Numbered from the stretch's first letter, positions 3,474-21,308 are shown. The stretch is 23,166 bases of DNA from a virus (IMGVR_UViG_2565956631_000014:1-23166), one strand, 5' to 3'. The notes: a model not told the origin generated them from the letters alone. Program-made: numbers and translations.

Positions 3474-5600
3474 ATGGCAGAGACATTAGAGAAAAAACAT
3501 GAGCGGATCATGCTCAGGTTTGACCGCGCCTATTCTCCACAGCAGGAAGTGCGCGAAAAGTGCATTGAAGCTACGAGGTTTGCTCGTGTCCCCGGAGGTC
3601 AATGGGAAGGAGCAACGGCGGCTGGAACTAAGCTTGATGAGCAGTTCGAGAAGTATCCTAAGTTTGAAATCAATAAGGTAGCAACTGAACTTAACCGCAT
3701 CATTGCAGAATACCGCAATAACAGAATCACCGTTAAGTTTCGTCCTGGTGACAGAGAGGCAAGCGAAGAGTTAGCCAATAAATTAAATGGTCTGTTCCGT
3801 GCTGACTACGAAGAAACTGATGGCGGTGAGGCTTGCGATAATGCATTTGACGACGCTGCTACTGGTGGTTTCGGTTGCTTCCGTTTGACGTCGATGCTGG
3901 TCAATGAATACGACCCCATGGACGATCGTCAGCGTATTGCTATTGAACCGATATACGACCCGTCGCGCTCTGTGTGGTTTGACCCTGACGCTAAGAAATA
4001 CGACAAATCTGACGCGTTGTGGGCGTTCTGCATGTATTCGTTGTCACCTGAAAAATATGAGGCTGAATACGGAAAGAAACCTCCTGCTTCTCTGGACGTA
4101 ACGTCTATGACCAGTTGGGAATATGACTGGTTTGATGCAGATGTTATTTACATAGCGAAGTATTACGAAGTTCGTAAAGAGTCTGTTGATGTTATCAGTT
4201 ATCGACATCCAATCACTGGAGAGATTGCAACATACGACAGTGATCAGGTCGAAGATATTGAAGATGAACTGGCAATAGCTGGATTTCAGGAAGTTGCAAG
4301 GCGCTCAGTGAAGCGCCGTCGTGTGTATGTATCAGTAGTGGATGGTGATGGTTTCCTTGAGAAACCTCGACGTATTCCTGGTGAGCATATCCCCCTCATC
4401 CCGGTTTATGGAAAACGCTGGTTCATTGATGACATTGAGCGTGTCGAAGGGCACATTGCAAAAGCAATGGATCCACAGCGTTTGTACAACCTTCAGGTTT
4501 CAATGCTGGCTGATACTGCAGCACAAGACCCCGGTCAGATCCCTATAGTTGGCATGGAGCAAATTCGTGGACTTGAGAAGCACTGGGAGGCTCGCAACAA
4601 GAAACGCCCAGCGTTCTTGCCGTTGCGCGAAGTGAGAGATAAATCTGGCAACATTATCGCTGGAGCTACCCCGGCAGGATATACACAGCCTGCGGTTATG
4701 AATCAGGCATTGGCTGCATTACTACAGCAAACCAGTGCTGATATTCAGGAGGTTACAGGCGGCAGTCAGGCCATGCAGCAGATGCCAAGTAATATTGCTC
4801 AGGAAACGGTTAACAACTTGATGAACAGAGCAGATATGGCTTCGTTTATCTATCTGGACAATATGGCGAAAAGTCTTAAACGCGCTGGTGAAGTATGGCT
4901 GTCAATGGCGCGTGAAGTGTACGGTTCAGAACGTGAAGTGCGCATCGTTAACGAAGATGGAAGTGATGATATCGCTGTCCTGAGCGCACAGGTTGTTGAC
5001 AGGCAAACAGGGGCTGTTGTTGCGTTAAATGACCTTTCTGTCGGTCGATACGATGTGACGGTTGATGTTGGACCAAGCTACACAGCACGACGTGATGCAA
5101 CGGTTTCTGTACTGACAAATGTCCTTAGCTCTATGCTTCCAACAGACCCAATGCGCCCGGCAATTCAGGGTATTATTCTGGACAATATCGATGGCGAAGG
5201 CCTTGATGACTTCAAAGAGTACAACCGAAACCAACTGCTGATATCTGGTATTGCAAAACCACGCAATGAGAAAGAGCAGCAGATTGTTCAACAGGCGCAA
5301 ATGGCAGCACAAAGCCAGCCAAATCCTGAAATGGTTCTCGCTCAGGCGCAAATGGTAGCAGCGCAGGCAGAAGCGCAAAAAGCAACTAACGAAACTGCTC
5401 AAACTCAAATCAAAGCATTTACTGCCCAGCAGGATGCGATGGAGAGTCAGGCAAACACTGTCTATAAACTGGCTCAAGCCAGAAACATCGATGACAAAGC
5501 AGTGATGGAGGCAATACGCCTTCTGAAAGATGTCGCCGAGTCACAACAACAGCAATTCCAGTCACCACCACAGTCACCGGCAGACTTAATGCCGAGTTAA
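3474..5600 (+). CDS. portal protein (P22 gp1 family)
   Basis: 708 aa from ATG 3474, directly after the TerL stop; the track ORF extends to 3402 only as an in-frame read-through overlapping TerL. Core similarity to P22 gp1 (KRRRVYVSVV, IPGEHIPLIPVYG) and a long Q/A-rich C-terminal helical barrel. Confidence 0.9.
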   Translation: MAETLEKKHERIMLRFDRAYSPQQEVREKCIEATRFARVPGGQWEGATAAGTKLDEQFEKYPKFEINKVATELNRIIAEYRNNRITVKFRPGDREASEELANKLNGLFRADYEETDGGEACDNAFDDAATGGFGCFRLTSMLVNEYDPMDDRQRIAIEPIYDPSRSVWFDPDAKKYDKSDALWAFCMYSLSPEKYEAEYGKKPPASLDVTSMTSWEYDWFDADVIYIAKYYEVRKESVDVISYRHPITGEIATYDSDQVEDIEDELAIAGFQEVARRSVKRRRVYVSVVDGDGFLEKPRRIPGEHIPLIPVYGKRWFIDDIERVEGHIAKAMDPQRLYNLQVSMLADTAAQDPGQIPIVGMEQIRGLEKHWEARNKKRPAFLPLREVRDKSGNIIAGATPAGYTQPAVMNQALAALLQQTSADIQEVTGGSQAMQQMPSNIAQETVNNLMNRADMASFIYLDNMAKSLKRAGEVWLSMAREVYGSEREVRIVNEDGSDDIAVLSAQVVDRQTGAVVALNDLSVGRYDVTVDVGPSYTARRDATVSVLTNVLSSMLPTDPMRPAIQGIILDNIDGEGLDDFKEYNRNQLLISGIAKPRNEKEQQIVQQAQMAAQSQPNPEMVLAQAQMVAAQAEAQKATNETAQTQIKAFTAQQDAMESQANTVYKLAQARNIDDKAVMEAIRLLKDVAESQQQQFQSPPQSPADLMPS

Positions 5601-13394: not shown

Positions 13395-15208
13395 TGGCCT
13401 ATAGTCGTGAACAGTTGATGACGGCGTTAAGGAATGCTGATGCTGCCGGCGATACTGAGGGAGCACGTCGCATTGCTCAGATGCTGTCTTCTGGTGATCA
13501 ATCCACTCAAAACCAATCGCAGCCAGAAGAACAATCTCTGGTGGGAAAAGCTACTGACTGGCTCACTGGTGGTCAAAGTGCAGGGCAAATTGCAGAACAG
13601 GCTGGTCGTGGTCTGGTAAACATACCATTTGACGTATTGCAGGGCGGCGCAAGTCTGATTAATGCAATCAGTCAGGGGCTTGGTGGACCCAAGGTTTTGG
13701 ATGATGTTTATCGTCCAGTAGACAGACCGACAGACCCATACGCACAAGCCGGTGAAACAATTGGTGGGTATTTAGTTCCAGGAGTTGGAACGGCAGGAAG
13801 CATGGCTATTGGATCACTGGCAGAGGCCGCAAATCAGAAAGGCGATTTCGCACAAAATGCAGCTAAAAATGCCGGAGTTAACCTTGCCGCTCAAGGTGTT
13901 CTTTCCGCAGCAGCAAAGGGAATAGGGCGTGGAATAACGGCTATAAAAGGTGATATTGCGCCAGAAGTGGCGAAGAAAATTGCCACATCAGAATCGATGG
14001 GCGTGACACCAATGACATCTGATGTTATCCCGCCGAAAAATGCTTTCACTCGCGGCCTTACTCAGGATGCCGAGGGGGCTTTGCTCGGGACAGGATCAAA
14101 GCGAGCCGAGCAGTATGCAAAAAGAAGTCAGCTAGTTAAAAAACAGCTTGAGAAATATGGCGAATATAGCCCATCAGTTGTTGTTGACGATCTGTATGGT
14201 TCTCTGAAGTCAAGGAAGGATTCAGCCGGAAGCGTTATTGAAGACATTACAACCAAAATGGGAGACGCACCTGTTGACACATCAAAATCAATTAAGGTTA
14301 TCGACAACGTACTTACCAGAGCTAACAGGCTTGGGAAAGTGGCAAATAAGGATTTGATTCGCGGGTTATCCGATTTGCGAGAAGAACTTGCTAAACCAGA
14401 TATAGATTTTGGTCTATTGAGAGAGTTACGGTCAGCCTTGAGGGAAAGTATTCAGGGAGATGCCATGGTTTTTCCCAATAGCGCGAAAGCTGCAACTGAT
14501 GCCGTGGAGAGGGCAATGGGTGCAGATTTGAGGAATAACGCAGCACGGTATTTGGGGGCTGGAGAGGCCGCCAGATACGTTAAAGCAAACTCTGACTACT
14601 CCAGCGTCTTCAATAAGGTTCTCAATAAAAGGATTGCGAATAATCTCAACAAAGCTAAAAAAGAGTTTACTCCAGAGCTAATAAACAGCGTTGTATTCAG
14701 CAGAAAACCATCAGATATTAAGAGGATATGGCCTGCTCTTAGTGAAGATGGAAAGAACGCTATGCGTGCTGCTTATATCAGCAAGATTGCAGAAAAAGCA
14801 GGAGACTCGCCAACAAAATTTCTTACCGAGTTAAATAAGTTGAAGTCGCAATCTGACGGTCAGATCTATAACACGATATTCAGTGGGAGACACATGAAAG
14901 AGCTTGATGCTCTTCATGAAGTTCTACAGCAAACAGCAAGGTCGGACACCGCAAATGTGGTAACACAGACGGGGCAATCACAAGCCAACAGGATAAGGAC
15001 GATTGGCGCAACTGCGACTCTTGGGGCAACACTGGCGCTTGAATCTGGTTTCGGTGCAATGATGCGCCTGTATGAGTCCAAAGCAACGAGGAATGCGCTC
15101 TTACGTCTGGCAAATACTAAAGCTGGAACGCCAGCCTATGAAAGAGCGCTGAATAACGCCGCAAATGCCATCAGACCAATACTTGCCAATGATGCAACTG
15201 ATCGCTAA
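13394..15208 (+). CDS. ejection protein, P22 gp16-like
   Basis: 604 aa, start overlaps previous stop (TAATG); size close to P22 gp16. Confidence 0.65.
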
Positions 15209-15229: not shown

Positions 15230-15868
15230 TTAATTGCGAATGGAATCGCGGAACTCTTTACTTGATAGAAAAGGATCTGTTCTCCTTAACTCATCATAGT
15301 TTTTATTAAACTTTCTTGCTTCACCAGGGTATCTGTTGAACAAAACATTGCAGAAAAAAGAGAGCAATAACTCACATATAAATGCTAATATCCTGAAAAA
15401 TAAAGGTATAAAAAGAAGGAAAGGTTCATTGAAGTCTCTATTCCAAACAAAATAGACAATCATCCCGACATACCAAATTGATATCCCTATACTGATGATT
15501 GTTCCAACAGAGGTAACTACGATCCCGATTAAGTCGGACAGTCTGTTTGCCAGTAACTCATTTGAGTATCTTGCAATCATATACCGCCAACATTTTGCAA
15601 TATCATCCTGATCTGTAGAGTCTTCTGGAATGGCTAGGCTTCTACATATTGAAGCAGCTCTTTTTTTCTCAACTCTTTTTGAGAGCCATCCATTAAAGAG
15701 ATACATCAACACCTGCGTTGCTATTCCTGCACCAAGTGATATCAAAGACATCCCCAAAAATCGCCATCCTGGAGATAGTGACTGGTACTGCCAAACAAAA
15801 AAAATTAAAAAACCCAATGAGCCTATGACATAGGCTGATGTATCGCTATATATATCTATTTTTTTCAT
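15230..15868 (-). CDS. multi-pass inner-membrane protein at the sieA position (candidate superinfection-exclusion protein)
   Basis: 212 aa from the internal ATG at 15868, which has AAGGAG 9 nt upstream (track ORF starts 11 codons earlier). Four to five hydrophobic helices (e.g. YVIGSLGFLIFFVWQY, LIGIVVTSVGTIISIGISIWYVGMIVYFVW) with charged loops. Visibly AT-rich relative to flanking structural genes. Convergent with the gp16-like gene. Confidence 0.6.
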   Translation of the reverse strand: MKKIDIYSDTSAYVIGSLGFLIFFVWQYQSLSPGWRFLGMSLISLGAGIATQVLMYLFNGWLSKRVEKKRAASICRSLAIPEDSTDQDDIAKCWRYMIARYSNELLANRLSDLIGIVVTSVGTIISIGISIWYVGMIVYFVWNRDFNEPFLLFIPLFFRILAFICELLLSFFCNVLFNRYPGEARKFNKNYDELRRTDPFLSSKEFRDSIRN

Positions 15869-15918
15869 TGAGTAGCCACTCCTTAGTTTTGAGCAGAACA
15901 CCGGATGATAATGTTTTG

Positions 15919-16170
15919 TTATGTGTCTTTTGGGATTCTATCCAGTAACTCGTTGGAAATTTTATCAAGTAAAGATTTTATTTGTTTAAGATCTAATGAT
16001 TTGTCTACTGATGAGACGTCAGATGATAACGCATCCTCAAGAATTTGAACTATCTCTGAGTTCATAGATCGACCGTTTCGTTTAGCCCTTTCCGCAATAG
16101 CACTACGCATGCCGTCAGGCATTCTAACCGTAAATCTTTCTATGAAATTTGATTCGTCTTTTTCTGACAT
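15919..16170 (-). CDS. mnt: Mnt-like ribbon-helix-helix repressor
   Basis: 83 aa from ATG 16170 (track ORF has a 16-codon upstream extension). N-terminal RHH motif FTVRMPDGMRSAIAERAKRNGRSMNSEIVQILEDAL resembles P22 Mnt (FNFRMPMEVREKLKFRAEANGRSMNSELLQIVQDAL); C-terminal helical tail. Divergent from the arc-like gene. Confidence 0.7.
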   Translation of the reverse strand: MSEKDESNFIERFTVRMPDGMRSAIAERAKRNGRSMNSEIVQILEDALSSDVSSVDKSLDLKQIKSLLDKISNELLDRIPKDT

Positions 16171-16219
16171 TTTCTTATTCGCAAGGCATATGAGCAATAA
16201 AAAACACAGTAGCATCATA

Positions 16220-16274
16220 TTGACATTATGAGCAATGGCATCATAATGGTGTCATGACATCATGGTGATGTCAT
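16220..16274 (+). promoter_or_regulatory. sigma-70-like promoter plus 21-bp palindromic operator in the mnt/arc divergent region
   Basis: Seen directly: TTGACA at 16220..16225, 16-nt spacer, CATAAT at 16242..16247, oriented toward arc. Palindrome ATGACATCA-tgg-TGATGTCAT at 16254..16274 lies between the -10 and the arc start. TGACATTATGA-like motifs repeat at 16221 and 16269. Confidence 0.55.
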
Positions 16275-16290
16275 TATGACGGAGATATTG

Positions 16291-16467
16291 ATGATGAGCG
16301 ATGTTCTTTACAGTGGTCGTAAAAGTCAGAGTTTCCAGCTTCGTTTGCCAGCGCGAATGAAGGAGGAGATCAGACGCGTAGCTGAAATGGATGGAATTTC
16401 TATCAACTCTGCGATTGTGCAGCGACTGGCTAAAAGCCTGAGAGAGGAAAGAGCTAATGCCCAGTAA
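16291..16467 (+). CDS. arc: Arc-like ribbon-helix-helix repressor
   Basis: 58 aa from ATG 16291 (GGAG 6 nt upstream; alternative ATG 16276). RHH signature FQLRLPARMKEEIRRVAEMDGISINSAIVQRL is comparable to P22 Arc (FNLRWPREVLDLVRKVAEENGRSVNSEIYQRV). Confidence 0.7.
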   Translation: MMSDVLYSGRKSQSFQLRLPARMKEEIRRVAEMDGISINSAIVQRLAKSLREERANAQ

Positions 16468-16540
16468 AAATAGTGAAGCCCGGAAGTGCGCGAACACAAA
16501 CCGGGCCTCTATGTCAGTAACCGTACTCAAGGAAACTAAC

Positions 16541-17179
16541 ATGAATATTGTAGCAAAATCAGATTATAACTTCCAAGGATTCACTTTTAACCCTGTAACA
16601 GAGGGCGGGTCTATCTGGTTTACCTCCACCGAACTAGCTAAGGCTCTCGGCTATAAAAAAACTGATGCCATCAGCCAAATTTATGCCCGTAATGCTGACG
16701 AATTTTCCGACTCAATGTCATTGACCCTCAATATGAAGGTCAACGGAATAAACAATAGCTTACGTAACAAATCGGTCAGAGTTTACTCACTCCGAGGCGC
16801 TCACTTGGTGGCGATGTTTGCTTCTACGCCCAAGGCCAAAGAGTTCCGCCGCTGGGTGCTGGATATTTTGGATCGGCAGGCAGAATGCTCACCGATTGCA
16901 AAACAGTTTACTGACGAAGAACTGGTTAATCTCTGCTACTTACAATTGTGGATGGAGAAGAGTCAACAAATGTGCAAACACATCTACCCTGGAATGAAGC
17001 AAATTGGTTCTGAGCTTTCAGGAAAGATTTACGATATTGCATATGAGACTCGCTACATGTCAGAAGAAACCAAGAAATCGCTTCTTCGTGAAATGAAGAA
17101 TCTTGATCCCAACAATTTTGTCGTAAAGAACGCTCAGCCAATGCTGGCAAAACTTCGCGGCGAGGAATGGATTCATTGA
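16541..17179 (+). CDS. antirepressor-like protein with Bro-N-type N-terminal domain
   Basis: 212 aa from ATG 16541 (AAGGAA SD; track ORF starts 28 codons earlier). Bro-N-like motifs: GSIWFTSTELAKALGY, VRVYSLRGAHLVAMFASTPKAKEFRRWV. Sits where ant lies in P22 immI. Confidence 0.6.
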   Translation: MNIVAKSDYNFQGFTFNPVTEGGSIWFTSTELAKALGYKKTDAISQIYARNADEFSDSMSLTLNMKVNGINNSLRNKSVRVYSLRGAHLVAMFASTPKAKEFRRWVLDILDRQAECSPIAKQFTDEELVNLCYLQLWMEKSQQMCKHIYPGMKQIGSELSGKIYDIAYETRYMSEETKKSLLREMKNLDPNNFVVKNAQPMLAKLRGEEWIH

Positions 17180-17266
17180 TTGGCGCACAGGACGGCGCAA
17201 AAGAAAACCGCCAGTGTGCTGCTGGCGGCCTATGTCACACCCTTACTACCACATAAGGAATGCCTA

Positions 17267-17995
17267 ATGACTTTTAAGAATGTAGCAAACATCGGATCCG
17301 TTGTCACGGATAAAACCATTGATAGCCAGTACCTGTTAGAGATGGTCAATCATGCTCGTAGACAGTGCGGGGAAAAAGAAGTCCGAAATAACGACTTTAT
17401 TGCACGCATTAAGGATGAACTTGAAGGTGAGCACTACGAAATTTTCGTAGTTCAAAAATCAAACAAGACAACTTCTGAAAAAGTTGTTATGTCAATTAAG
17501 CAAGCCCTTCGAGTGGCTGCTCGTGAATCTAAAGCTGTTCGCCGCTCACTTGTAGACCAACTTGAAAGTATGCAAGAAGCGCACATTAAAAGCGGTAAAT
17601 CGTCGAGTGGACTTGTTGAGTATCGCCAGGCGCGAACATTGAAAATGACGGTTGAAGCTGTTACCAATCTGTTCGATTTGATGCCAAATCTTGCGCCGGA
17701 AGCAAAGCAGACTGCGGCAGCAAGCATAATCAACCCGCTCGTTGGTTTTAATGCAATACCTCTTCCGGCAATAGAAGAGCATTACTACTCAGCAGGGGAG
17801 GTTGCAGAGCAGCTTGGAGTAACGGCCAACAAGATTGGTCGCATTGCTAACGCAAACAACCTCAAAACTGAGCAGTACGGGAAGTTCTTCTTGGATAAAT
17901 CTGCGCATTCAAGCAAACAGGTGGAAGCATTCCGCTACAATGCGGAGGGTGTTAAAGCACTACAACACCTGATTCATGGGAGCAATGTTGCATAA
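17267..17995 (+). CDS. antirepressor-like protein with KilAC/ANT-type C-terminal domain
   Basis: 242 aa from ATG 17267 (AAGGAA SD; track ORF starts at 17180). C-terminal YYSAGEVAEQLGVTANKIGRIANANNL fits the KilAC/ANT pattern found in the C-terminal half of P22 Ant; N-terminus is Rha-like. Confidence 0.5.
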   Translation: MTFKNVANIGSVVTDKTIDSQYLLEMVNHARRQCGEKEVRNNDFIARIKDELEGEHYEIFVVQKSNKTTSEKVVMSIKQALRVAARESKAVRRSLVDQLESMQEAHIKSGKSSSGLVEYRQARTLKMTVEAVTNLFDLMPNLAPEAKQTAAASIINPLVGFNAIPLPAIEEHYYSAGEVAEQLGVTANKIGRIANANNLKTEQYGKFFLDKSAHSSKQVEAFRYNAEGVKALQHLIHGSNVA

Positions 17996-18216
17996 TGGCA
18001 AAGAAAAGATATGGCATTATGCCGCCAAGAATCAAAGGAAGAGCCAGGGTAAAAGGAGATGCTGGAAGGTATCACATTCTTGGAGTTCTGTGGCATGAGA
18101 GAGCTTTAATTTTAAGTAGACCTCATGGGTACATTGAAAAGGTATCTATAGATAGAGTAGAGATTCTTCCCCTTACACCTGAAGAAGAAGAAACTTACGG
18201 ACTTTTTGATAACTAA
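17995..18216 (+). CDS. hypothetical small basic protein (73 aa)
   Basis: Start overlaps the previous stop (TAATG); followed 8 nt later by a strong terminator. No recognisable motif. Confidence 0.45.
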   Translation: MAKKRYGIMPPRIKGRARVKGDAGRYHILGVLWHERALILSRPHGYIEKVSIDRVEILPLTPEEEETYGLFDN

Positions 18217-18223
18217 CCAATTA

Positions 18224-18252
18224 AACCCGCTTAATCGCGGGTTTTTTCTTTT
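18224..18252. terminator. Rho-independent terminator (strong for + strand, possibly bidirectional)
   Basis: Seen directly: AACCCGC-ttaatc-GCGGGTT hairpin followed by TTTTTTCTTTTC on the + strand. The hairpin also contains the stop codon of the minus-strand Mnt-like gene. Confidence 0.75.
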
Positions 18253-18488
18253 CTAAGAATATCAGCCGCAACTTCTTTTACTCGTTCCGAGATTAATGAG
18301 GCAAGCCTCTCTTCTTCATCACGATACCCGCTTACAGGTGATGGTTTGGAGAGCGATTCTTCCATCGTAGCCACAATTTCGGAATTGATAGACCTGTTAT
18401 TCATTTTTGCACGTTGCTTAATCTTGGCGTGCAACTCGTGCGTAAGCCTCAAGTGGAACTGCGCCTCATCGTATTTGCTGTACATCAT
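18231..18488 (-). CDS. mnt: Mnt-like ribbon-helix-helix repressor (second paralogue)
   Basis: 85 aa from the ATG ATG at 18488/18485 (GAGG 7 nt upstream); the 217-aa track ORF is an upstream read-through. Strong resemblance to P22 Mnt: FHLRLTHELHAKIKQRAKMNNRSINSEIVATMEESLSKPSPVSGYRDEEERLA versus FNFRMPMEVREKLKFRAEANGRSMNSELLQIVQDALSKPSPVTGYRNDAERLA. Confidence 0.7.
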   Translation of the reverse strand: MMYSKYDEAQFHLRLTHELHAKIKQRAKMNNRSINSEIVATMEESLSKPSPVSGYRDEEERLASLISERVKEVAADILRKEKTRD

Positions 18489-18620
18489 CAATGCCTCACC
18501 AAATGGGTGGAATGGCATCGTAAAACCTACTGTACAAATCAACAATCGTACCGTTTCGGTATGCAACAAATACCAACCGTAGCCATGCTGCGGCCATTCC
18601 TTGTATCTGGAGCAAATTAA

Positions 18621-21308
18621 ATGACAGACATTACAGCCAATGTTGTAGTGAGCATGCCTTCGCAACTCTTCACTATGGCGCGTTCTTTTAAAGCGGTTGC
18701 CAATGGCAAAATTTATATCGGTAAAATTGACACTGACCCGGTAAATCCTGAAAACCAGATTCAGGTTTATGTTGAGAATGAAGACGGTTCTCACGTTCCT
18801 GTTTCGCAACCAATCATCATTAACGCTGCTGGTTACCCGGTATATAACGGACAGATTGCCAAGTTCGTAACTGTGCAAGGCCACTCTATGGCTGTTTATG
18901 ATGCGTATGGTGCGCAGCAGTTCTATTTTCCTAATGTGCTGAAGTATGACCCTGATCAGTCATTGAAATATGTAGAAGGGGCATTGCTTGTTACTGACTT
19001 AGGTAATGGGACGTTTAAGAATAGTAGAAAAGACGTTGCCATTGGGGATAATCTAACAGGAACCAATTTTATTAGAATAAACGGCGGCGTCTATAAATGC
19101 ACTCCAGTTGCAACTGGAATTGTTACTGAGATCAAACATAGATACATTATCGCAGGCGGGGTTAAAAGCTACCTGTCTCATATTTCTAGGCATGTCAGTG
19201 GTACGCGTAGGCCGCTGAACTGGAAATTAGAATTCAGCATCATAGACGATGAGATTACCGCAGATCTTAAAGATCAGTATGGTTACACGACCATGGGATT
19301 TCAGGGGATTTACATAGACAGCAATGATGGAATGGTATACATCGGCTGGCAGACGCTAGACCCCGCATCGGTATGGGTTACGGTGCATGACTGGGTAACA
19401 GGAGCATTGGTAACACGTCTTCATTTTCCGAATAACGTTGGTGCACCAGAAGGCATCCACGTTTACCGAGTGGCAGGACAGCGTTACATCCTGCTGCCGT
19501 ACAGCCCATCTCGCACTATCAGAATTTACCCTATCGAAGATCCGCGTACGCTGGTTGATAAAACGCAGATTACAAACTTCACTGAATCAACACGCCTTGG
19601 AGTGCGATATCAGTTTAGTGGCTTTGGTAATACCCTGATATACGAAAATGCGGATATGGGTTGGCCGAAAATTTTTGATGTTGAGACAGGTGTATCCAAT
19701 ATCTTTAACACACTGGATATTAACAGCCTTATAGAAGGATCTTACAGTCCAATGGGGACTATTACGGTTGATGCAAATGTTGGAGGTCGCGGAGCCGGTA
19801 AACCAAAACGGCAGGGTGTCGCTCTTGGTTCTCAACGGATATTTGCTGGTATTGGTGCATCTACCACGGCGGGATCTGGAAATACTTTCGCAGGGTTGCA
19901 GGGTTATATTGAGTACAGCCTTAATGGTTCAGAATTAGGTCAGTACCTGCTGTCACCTGCAGATTTCAAAACATACTGGGATAGTTATTCAGGGAAGAGT
20001 GTTTACTCCACTGAAAATGAGGGGGTGCAGTCTTGTGATATTTCTGGCTCTGAGGAATTGTATCTTCTACAGTCTATTCGCTATGACAATGGGGGCGGAT
20101 CAAATTATAGGACTTTAAACATCATTCGCGCTAACTGTCCATCTAATGAACCTGGAACAGTAGACATGACTCCGCTATCCAATGCCTCATCACAGTTATT
20201 TAACCCTCGCGGAAGGGTGATTAACGCTGGCCGTCACCCTGTAAACCCGGCTGATGGTATTGCGCTATTTACATCGGCACAGGCTATTTGTGACTATTTG
20301 CGGAATACAGATGCAGGTAGATATGTGACATATCTTGAACAGGATATGCCACTGTTTGAAGGTGGGCCATCTGCGCCAGGACAGATGACGCTGCCAGCAT
20401 TCTGCCTATTGCAGATCGACTTCATCAACGGCGATACCTGGGAAATTACAGTTAATGGAACTAACAGGGCTAATAATTATACAGGAAGGATTTCCAAAAA
20501 CGGCGGGTACAACTCTTTTACTAAGGTGTCCTCCCGCAGCATGTCGATTCTCGGATCCCCTGGTCTGGTTGATGTATCAATTCGCTCACCTAACTCACTA
20601 AATCTTCCAGAATTTGCTGGAGACTGGTCTACTGGTGTAAGTATAGGAGCTGCAGGTGGGGTGACAAACTGGCAGCCAGAAGGAACAGGTAACGGAGCAT
20701 TATGGGAGTCAGGATATGCAAAAAACCGTGTGTTGCAGATATTCATGTCCACAACATCAAAACTGTTCTTCCGCTACGCAGACGATGCTATTCGCGCAGG
20801 TAACACAGGCTGGGCTGAGGCATGGTCGTCGCTGAACACGACCGTCGATTCAAGTGGTTTCATCAAAAAAGCCTCTCCGGTTGTGAAGATTTTCTCAGAC
20901 GGTAGTAGTGAAACAAATCGCGAATCAGATGGGGTAACCGTCACACGGCTGGCATTGGGTGAATATCTGATTGAGGGTTGCGTAGGTCTGAATGCAGATG
21001 CTTCATGGGGGGGGATTGATGGTGGATTTGAAATACCGCAGGACCGAAACAAGCAGCCGCTCATCTGGCTGGATTATGTTGTTAACCAAGATGGATCTGT
21101 GTTGGTGAAAACGTTTCACCGCACTCATGATAACTCGCCCGTTTTTGCACGTAACGACATCCCTGGTGTTTCGAACGGTGACCCGATCGACATTCCTGCT
21201 AATCAATTCGTTTCTGTGCGAGTACAGATGCCTGAGGATTCTGCATGGAATAAGCTTAAGGAACAACTAAATAAGGCTGAATTGATAGAAGATGATGTTG
21301 TGGAATAG
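18621..21308 (+). CDS. tailspike protein: P22 gp9-type head-binding N-terminus, uncharacterised receptor-binding C-terminal region
   Basis: 895 aa; GGAG SD. First ~115 aa ([43 protein letters not shown]...VLKYDPDQ) are near-identical to the P22-family tailspike head-binding domain. The remaining ~780 aa show no motif I recognise. Confidence 0.85.

Follow-up and report, generated by a model that had tools for sequence, protein, structure and literature searches.

The stretch of DNA analysed here (the window, 23,166 bp in full length) is the late region of an E. coli prophage of the P22-like (HK620/Sf6-like) kind, with approximately 95-97% identity over about half its length to records of P22-like phages (Lederbergvirus), HK620 and Sf6 among them. 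An immI-type module lies between the DNA-transfer gene, which ends at 15208, and the tailspike ATG at 18622, and comprises, in order, a SieA-like gene, a divergent RHH gene (RHH-A), an Arc-like gene, ant, a second antirepressor-type gene, a small ORF and, on the minus strand, a third RHH gene, RHH-C (Table 1). All three RHH proteins match PF03869 (Pfam Arc), and the PDB sequence matches among them are AmrZ, Mnt and pArc. The ant product contains both the P22_AR_C (Pfam, E = 7e-14) and the Bro-N (1.4e-10) domains and is assigned to PHROG 245, 'anti-repressor Ant' (6.3e-50).

Table 1. Features of the immI-type module, in coordinates of the window
Feature	Position	Strand	Basis or remark
SieA-like membrane protein gene	15230-15868	-	PHROG 7745 'superinfection exclusion SieA-like', E = 1.7e-20
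RHH-A, mnt-position RHH repressor gene	15919-16170	-	Pfam Arc E = 1.4e-17
O3, degenerate unit AGCATCA-tat-TGACATT	16211-16227		single GCATCA half-site; part of direct repeat
Candidate leftward RHH-A promoter (Pmnt analogue) ATGCCA-16-TATGAT	16214-16241	-	consensus scan 9/12
Pant-like promoter TTGACA-16-CATAAT	16220-16247	+	11/12 consensus positions
O1, imperfect palindrome ATGGCATCA-taa-TGGTGTCAT	16235-16255		7/9 arm positions; centred on -10 hexamer
O2, perfect 21-bp palindrome ATGACATCA-tgg-TGATGTCAT	16254-16274		proposed primary RHH-A operator
Arc-like RHH gene	16294-16467	+	Pfam Arc E = 1.1e-11; PGAP CDS
sar-like antisense RNA (predicted)	16467-16540	-	colinearity with P22 sar
Antirepressor gene ant	16541-17179	+	Bro-N + P22AR C-terminal domain
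Psar-like promoter	16547-16576	-	consensus scan 9/12, TG ahead of -10
Second antirepressor-type gene (ORF)	17267-17992		PHROG 1726 'anti-repressor', E = 1.4e-100
RHH-C, third RHH gene	18231-18485	-	PHROG 795, E = 2.3e-32; Pfam Arc 3.7e-15

The genes at the two ends of the module have features of their own. The SieA-like protein (212 aa, without a Pfam match) is encoded at the same position as sieA in P22, and its gene is a PGAP CDS in an identical prophage copy of O111. Within the PHROG 1726 ORF, the sequence at 17433-17451, ACTACGAAATTTTCGTAGT, is a perfect 9+1+9 palindrome, a size that only two perfect palindromes reach in the 23 kb; its counterpart in two Erwinia loci (L008, L015) is CCTACAAAATTTTTGTAGG, and the maintenance of palindromy through symmetric changes suggests a functional site or hairpin within the coding sequence. 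Further downstream, a GC-rich hairpin with flanking A-runs and T-runs (18223-18244), likely a bidirectional terminator, is located between a convergent ORF ending at 18216 and RHH-C, which ends at 18231. The RHH-C gene and the tailspike gene diverge, and RHH-C has the same sequence in prophages whose immI cassettes differ. Upstream of it is TACCGTTTCGGTA, a 5+3+5 palindrome (18549-18561); no sigma-70 consensus site was found in this upstream region.

RHH-A is a protein of 83 aa whose β-strand, ERFTVRMP, carries the DNA-facing residues R-T-R. An earlier note on this DNA had described it as Mnt-like, which holds for the RHH domain, where identity to P22 Mnt is 54% and limited to the 37-aa core, but the closer Mnt homologue is RHH-C, with 47% identity over 73 aa that include the C-terminal domain; RHH-C belongs to the same PHROG as Mnt (795), whereas the best PHROG for RHH-A is 1287. 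A single-sequence AF2 model of RHH-A (pLDDT 73) has helices at residues 19-32, 36-52 and 61-78, the last of which is amphipathic, follows the RHH domain and has hydrophobic residues spaced 3-4 apart. Since the model is that of a monomer, with the strand drawn as a helix as expected for the monomer of an obligate dimer, it is uninformative on DNA contacts and oligomer state and confirms only the helices. PGAP labels the gene a pseudogene 'missing C-terminus', yet short-tail versions of 82 aa exist among the relatives, and the label is probably wrong. The homologues range in length from 82 to 138 aa, and the C-terminal tails of these Mnt-role repressors (15919-16018 in the window; homologues in loci L004-L097) are shuffled independently of the DNA-binding heads, so that the same tail types are found on heads of types A and B as defined in Table 2. 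The Arc-like protein is 57 aa long, has the strand SFQLRLP with the DNA-facing residues S-Q-R, and is 42% identical to P22 Arc over 43 aa.

The earlier note had placed a 120-bp region with a near-consensus promoter facing arc between the two divergent genes. The RHH-A gene starts at 16170 on the minus strand and the Arc-like gene at 16294, which is the PGAP start and agrees with the homologues; the region is therefore intergenic as claimed but 123 bp long. The promoter is there as described, with TTGACA at 16220-16225, a spacer of 16 nt and CATAAT at 16242-16247. It is the best promoter-like site that a consensus scan detects in 15850-16700, is colinear with the annotated Pant of P22, has -35 and -10 hexamers that are invariant among the relatives and, by its position, would drive the Arc-like gene and ant from a predicted start near A16254. 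A candidate leftward promoter faces it, with a -10 that abuts the Pant-like -35 and is located inside an invariant block; conservation ends where the predicted leader starts, and we infer that this is the promoter of RHH-A. A search by eye for LexA-, Fur- and CRP-type boxes yielded no match kept in the relatives. The region also contains an exact 10-nt direct repeat, TATGAGCAAT, with one copy in the RHH-A leader (16189-16198) and the other, 38 bp apart, in the Pant-like spacer (16227-16236); it is limited to the lineage of the window, the relatives having a leader shorter by 5 nt and a different spacer.

The 9+3+9 palindrome that had been reported between the -10 and the arc start consists of ATGACATCA (16254-16262), tgg and TGATGTCAT (16266-16274), with arms that are 100% complementary, and spans approximately +1 to +21 of the Pant-like promoter as counted from the predicted start. 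The 23,166-bp window contains only two perfect inverted repeats that combine arms of 9 or more with a loop no longer than 5, and when the intergenic region, which is rich in ATGA/TCAT, is subjected to dinucleotide shuffling, only 1.4% of the shuffles yield such a repeat. The core CATCA-N3-TGATG occurs once in the window and once in the 40.6 kb of the identical prophage copy. A stronger argument for a real site than these chance statistics is the conservation of the core: in 21 distinct relatives from several enterobacterial genera, CATCA is present in all 21 and TGATG in 20, with TGGTG in the sole exception (L052). In most relatives that share the window's cassette (type A), O2 has the form 7+3+7, i.e. 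17 bp, the same size as Omnt of P22, and the lineage of the window differs from these by one extra base and longer arms. Repeated motifs had been noted as well; TGACATTATGA (16221-16231) and TGTCATTATGA (16269-16279) are indeed 91% alike, but the second copy is not conserved beyond the part that belongs to the palindrome.

Two 19-bp units that are 79% alike stand in tandem (16235-16253 and 16254-16272), and O2 corresponds to the second of them. The core of the imperfect palindrome O1 is perfect (CATCA-taa-TGATG) in loci L073, L086, L097, L111 and L115 and in further IMG/VR loci, and O2 would be the better half of a putative tandem operator pair, O2/O1. The degenerate unit O3 overlaps both the rightward -35 and the candidate leftward -10 and is contained in a 17-mer, TAGCATCATATTGACAT, that is invariant in 22 distinct relatives. 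Across 21-22 distinct type A regions, from Klebsiella, Yersinia, Hafnia, Lonsdalea and IMG/VR contigs, TAGCATCATATTGACAT, CAATGRCATCATAATGRTG and CATCA are invariant and both leaders are variable. The hexamer RCATCA is also found at 16212-16217 and 16238-16243, beyond the palindrome and beyond the transcript, a recurrence that fits a motif recognized by a protein.

At the junction of the Arc-like gene and ant, the minus strand reads GUUNGUUU...UUACUGACA, followed by a GC-rich hairpin and a U-run, and is colinear with P22 sar. The predicted sar-like RNA abuts the ant ATG with its 5' end, and its terminator hairpin (16509->16475), in which five pairs show compensatory changes among 16 sequences, precedes a U-run beside the arc stop codon. 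The Psar-like promoter, TTGGAA-18-TGcTACAAT, falls within the 5' portion of ant, with the offset from the ATG that the annotated Psar has in P22. The Rfam sar model (RF00262) gave no match here at E <= 1, with a control score of 97.8 bits on P22, and an Rfam search of 15800-18700 at the same threshold matched no family. As the model misses a colinear, predicted sar-like RNA with compensatory changes, the curated family would be narrower than the real distribution of these RNAs.

Among 5,426 complete E. coli genomes, 24 contain an identical 661-bp segment, and a further 46 share only the segment from approximately 16271 rightwards; the antirepressor-module specificity of the window thus appears rare in this species. 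Comparison of the 123-bp intergenic region with 50,697 phage records by blastn produced no match, and a search of phage records with the RHH-A protein found none covering at least 80% of its length; the type A cassette is absent from the isolated phage records of the collection searched. In one locus with a cassette identical to that of the window (L003, E. coli O111:H- 110512, 4128-5341), IS1203 splits the antirepressor gene and a second IS1203 copy adjoins a shortened DNA-transfer gene.

Related loci were retrieved with the Arc-like protein (14 genome and 80 IMG/VR loci), with RHH-A (80 loci) and, in addition, with a 15-mer of the promoter. In these loci a conserved block of arc, the sar-like element and ant is joined to at least six different cassettes, each consisting of an RHH-A gene and the adjoining intergenic region, and the set anchored on RHH-A adds three more cassette types (Table 2). 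The repeated motif differs from cassette to cassette, but in every one it falls at the same three positions, one immediately ahead of the -35, one covering the -10 and one past the -10.

Table 2. Strands of the divergent RHH repressor and repeated intergenic motifs, by cassette type
Cassette	Strand (DNA-facing residues)	Motif
A (window)	ERFTVRMP (R-T-R)	CATCA-N3-TGATG
B (E. coli 55989)	DRFN[IV]RLP (R-N-R)	TTGGTTCTAGAACCAA
C	APFGLRMP (P-G-R)	CACGGTG...CACCGTG
D	DKFMLRFP (K-M-R)	GTGACAT-C-ATGTCAC
E	PVFNLRMP (V-N-R, near Mnt)	CCCCAC-G-GTGGGG (near Omnt)
F	QDKFNLRFP (K-N-R)	direct ATGGTGKTAA repeats
G	EKFVVRFP (K-V-R)	GGCATAATGCC
H	QDKFTVRFP (K-T-R)	AAGGCAATTTGCCTT
I	YDKFNLRFP (K-N-R)	TGGTGCCA-type

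The earlier note had proposed that co-variation of the operator with the strand residues of the RHH proteins should be looked for. When the 100 bp upstream of arc were clustered (58 distinct sequences, six clusters), the clusters coincided with the DNA-facing triple of RHH-A (AMI 1.00) and agreed poorly with that of the Arc-like protein (AMI 0.37), so that the answer is positive for the divergent RHH protein and poor for Arc. The motif counts follow the central strand residue of RHH-A: regions with R-T-R average 4.8 TGATG, those with R-N-R 2.1 TGGTG and 1.7 TGGTT, and those with K-N-R 2.7 TGGTG. The E. coli 55989 prophage illustrates the exchange, as its block from arc to the tailspike gene is 93% identical to that of the window, with an identical Arc strand, and it has a different RHH-A head and, at the same place, the palindrome TTGGTTCTAGAACCAA. 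Identity between the two is at least 90% from arc onwards, 75% in the RHH-A helices and 50-65% from RHH-A codon ~19 through the operators, the difference being centred on RHH-A residues 1-19 and the intergenic region. The C-terminal tails of RHH-A are common to type A and type B heads, with up to 77% identity, and the type A head and operators are also paired with an unrelated Arc family (L185, L190). A scan of IMG/VR with the 15-mer gave 102 matches, of which 65, lacking the type A context and presumably due to chance, were filtered out; in each of the 37 contigs that have the type A promoter context, ERFT[VI]R[MFL]P is encoded upstream. Because RHH-A adjoins the operators, the association is partly one of linkage, but linkage alone is an insufficient explanation, given the breakpoints on both sides of the head/operator unit.

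For the Arc-like protein no such partner was identified in the intergenic region. Unrelated promoter/operator cassettes, at least four in number (A, B, D and F), are accompanied by its S-Q-R triple, the same Arc strands are found with unrelated -35/-10 spacers, and among loci with the same cassette and different Arc strand types no intergenic element tracks the Arc type. For this comparison the -35/-10 spacers, the leaders and the arc-ant junctions were compared within cassettes at loci with differing Arc proteins (L086 for A; L008, L084 and L016 for B; L014 and L015 for D; L092 for F), and no difference consistent with the Arc type emerged. TAGA-type boxes, or any Arc-type-specific element, were not found between the -35 and the -10; the inverted repeat CATTATGA-N9-TCATAATG that occupies this interval in the window has a left arm that is unconserved in the relatives. 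A k-mer screen for words common to every region with an S-Q-R Arc yielded no more than the -35 and TGACATC, and the latter was rejected as an Arc operator since its position shifts between cassettes and it is lacking in some. Either the Arc-like protein reads a feature common to all cassettes or its site is elsewhere.

We consider it likely that the palindrome O2 is the high-affinity operator of RHH-A, which would play the part that Mnt has in P22 immI. Sequence comparison supports the elements themselves, how they are conserved and placed with respect to the promoter, and the co-variation between them and RHH-A; the binding of RHH-A, its stoichiometry, the start sites and the regulatory logic are modelled on P22. 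In the proposed scheme, two RHH-A dimers, probably joined via their C-terminal helices as in Mnt, would bind the two RCATCA half-sites of O2 at +1 to +21 of Pant, and the second, weaker unit O1 would cover the -10. Occupancy of O2/O1 would block RNA polymerase at Pant, keeping the arc-ant operon silent in the lysogen, and would free the overlapping leftward promoter; in P22, Mnt is said to silence Pant and to free the overlapping leftward promoter in the same manner. O3 may serve in autoregulation, limiting RHH-A synthesis at high concentration, and the sar-like RNA would damp translation of ant.

The same palindrome could be assigned to other readers. In P22, Arc autoregulates Pant, and with this precedent, with arc as the first gene downstream and with a palindrome of 21 bp, the length of the P22 Oarc, O2 might be the operator through which the Arc-like protein closes its own promoter after infection. 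This is nonetheless very unlikely, as S-Q-R Arc proteins occur with the unrelated operator sets A, B, D and F, type A operators are unchanged when combined with a G-M-R Arc (L086) or with the other Arc family (L185, L190), and the P22 Oarc is located between the -35 and the -10, not past the -10. The palindrome would appear to belong to the Mnt-role protein and not to Arc. The third RHH protein, or another factor, is an extremely improbable reader. RHH-C resembles P22 Mnt, over the C-terminal domain as well, but the window and 55989/MB06231 have unrelated palindromes and an identical RHH-C, which thus cannot set the difference between the operators; it was rejected on this ground, and it has the strand residues Q-H-R and its own candidate palindrome upstream of its own gene.

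A further possibility is that the palindrome works at the RNA level and not as a DNA site, forming a hairpin at the 5' terminus of the arc-ant mRNA that influences how stable the message is or how it is translated. The position at the predicted +1 to +21 is suitable, the 9-bp stem has a folding energy of about -8 to -9.6 kcal/mol (-7 to -11 kcal/mol in the relatives), one pair shows GC<->AU changes in six sequences, and G-U pairs occur where the DNA arms are asymmetric. On the other hand, of the five inner pairs, four never vary in sequence and the remaining one is altered in a single sequence, on one side only, without co-variation; the covariation score does not exceed that of shuffled alignments (reached by 56 of 500), and the fold of the window sequence is no better than that of its shuffles (z = -0.27). 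Moreover, the hexamer recurs upstream of the start site, where RNA is not made, and the type F cassette has direct repeats at this position. A role as an RNA element in place of an operator is therefore highly doubtful; the hairpin might be no more than a by-product of the palindrome, and it could exist alongside an operator role.

If O2 is the operator of RHH-A, the specificity CATCA-N3-TGATG, read by R-T-R, would define a heteroimmune immI type, as it is unlike both that of P22 Mnt and that of the 55989 type. A distinct specificity had been suggested previously from the operator sequences, and the DNA-facing residues differ as well, being R-T-R in RHH-A and H-N-R in Mnt, and S-Q-R in the Arc-like protein and Q-N-R in Arc. 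Tentatively, the observations can be joined in a broader reading, which we regard as possible but on the whole unlikely to hold in all its parts. Immunity specificity would reside wholly in an exchangeable unit of ~180 bp, made up of the first ~19 codons of the Mnt-role repressor and a multi-site operator/promoter, that recombines freely against a constant arc-sar-ant block and shuffled tails; the Arc-like protein would have no operator of its own in Pant and would act elsewhere or by another route; and a single Thr<->Asn change in the strand would correspond to a single base change in the operator (TGATG<->TGGTG), a natural read-out of an RHH recognition rule.

Antirepressor modules decide whether a related incoming phage induces the resident prophage or whether the prophage is immune. 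With a distinct operator/repressor pair, the prophage would not cross-regulate antirepressor promoters of the P22 or 55989 type, which bears on prophage cross-talk in polylysogens. At least nine natural pairings of repressor head and operator, from R-T-R/TGATG and R-N-R/TGGTG-TGGTT to V-N-R/CCCCAC-G-GTGGGG, constitute a data set on how two or three RHH strand residues select DNA; there is nothing conceptually new in this, but simple swaps could test it.

Among solved structures, the best sequence match to RHH-A is the Arc-family RHH protein AmrZ of Pseudomonas aeruginosa (PDB 3QOQ; E = 7e-08, residues 7-51), which differs in being a chromosomal regulator of alginate and motility and in its strand, KFVVRLP. 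Among phages, the slot occupied by the module corresponds to the 'ant moron' described as highly variable, with ten types in sixteen P22-like genomes (Villafane et al. 2008, PMC2629481), of which, according to that report and PMC8022706, only the P22 version has been studied; the window contains another variant of this slot. The former work compared gene content, and the available portion of it does not describe a pairing of operator types with repressor N-termini. Our literature search found no paper describing these operator types.

Like P22 Mnt, RHH-A belongs to the RHH proteins, has a length of 82-83 aa and carries a helix at its C-terminus, and in both cases the palindrome overlaps the start of Pant, as predicted for the window. 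The half-sites differ, GGTCCAC in P22 (17-bp operator GGTCCAC-G-GTGGACC) against RCATCA in the window, and the C-terminal tail of RHH-A lacks detectable homology to that of Mnt and is shuffled among the relatives. The Arc-like protein, as P22 Arc, is a small RHH protein encoded by the first gene of the ant operon.

The match to the layout of immI that the earlier note had perceived is borne out by the annotated P22 record: the same slot between the DNA-transfer and tailspike genes and beside a SieA-like gene, an RHH gene in divergent orientation, a near-consensus rightward promoter with its palindrome, an Arc-like first gene, a predicted antisense element reaching from the ant ATG to the arc stop, and an antirepressor with the P22AR C-terminal domain. 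In that record Pant is TTGACA-17-TATATT, Oarc is placed between the hexamers, and Omnt (AGGTCCACGGTGGACCT) begins 7 nt past the -10; the palindrome of the window also begins 7 nt past the -10 (the -10, 6 nt, then the palindrome) and accordingly occupies the position of Omnt. The operators themselves are unlike those of P22, as had been claimed, since neither AGGTCCACGGTGGACCT nor ATGATAGAAGCACTCTACTAT is present in the window even when three mismatches are allowed. The two loci also differ in that the window has two tandem palindromic units and a half unit where P22 has one Omnt, has no identifiable equivalent of Oarc, carries downstream both an additional gene closer to Mnt and another antirepressor-type gene, and is not scored by the Rfam sar model, which scores P22. 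As far as these sequence comparisons reach, the region is most likely a new DNA-recognition variant of the P22 immI switch, with a specificity of its own, and not a new kind of system.
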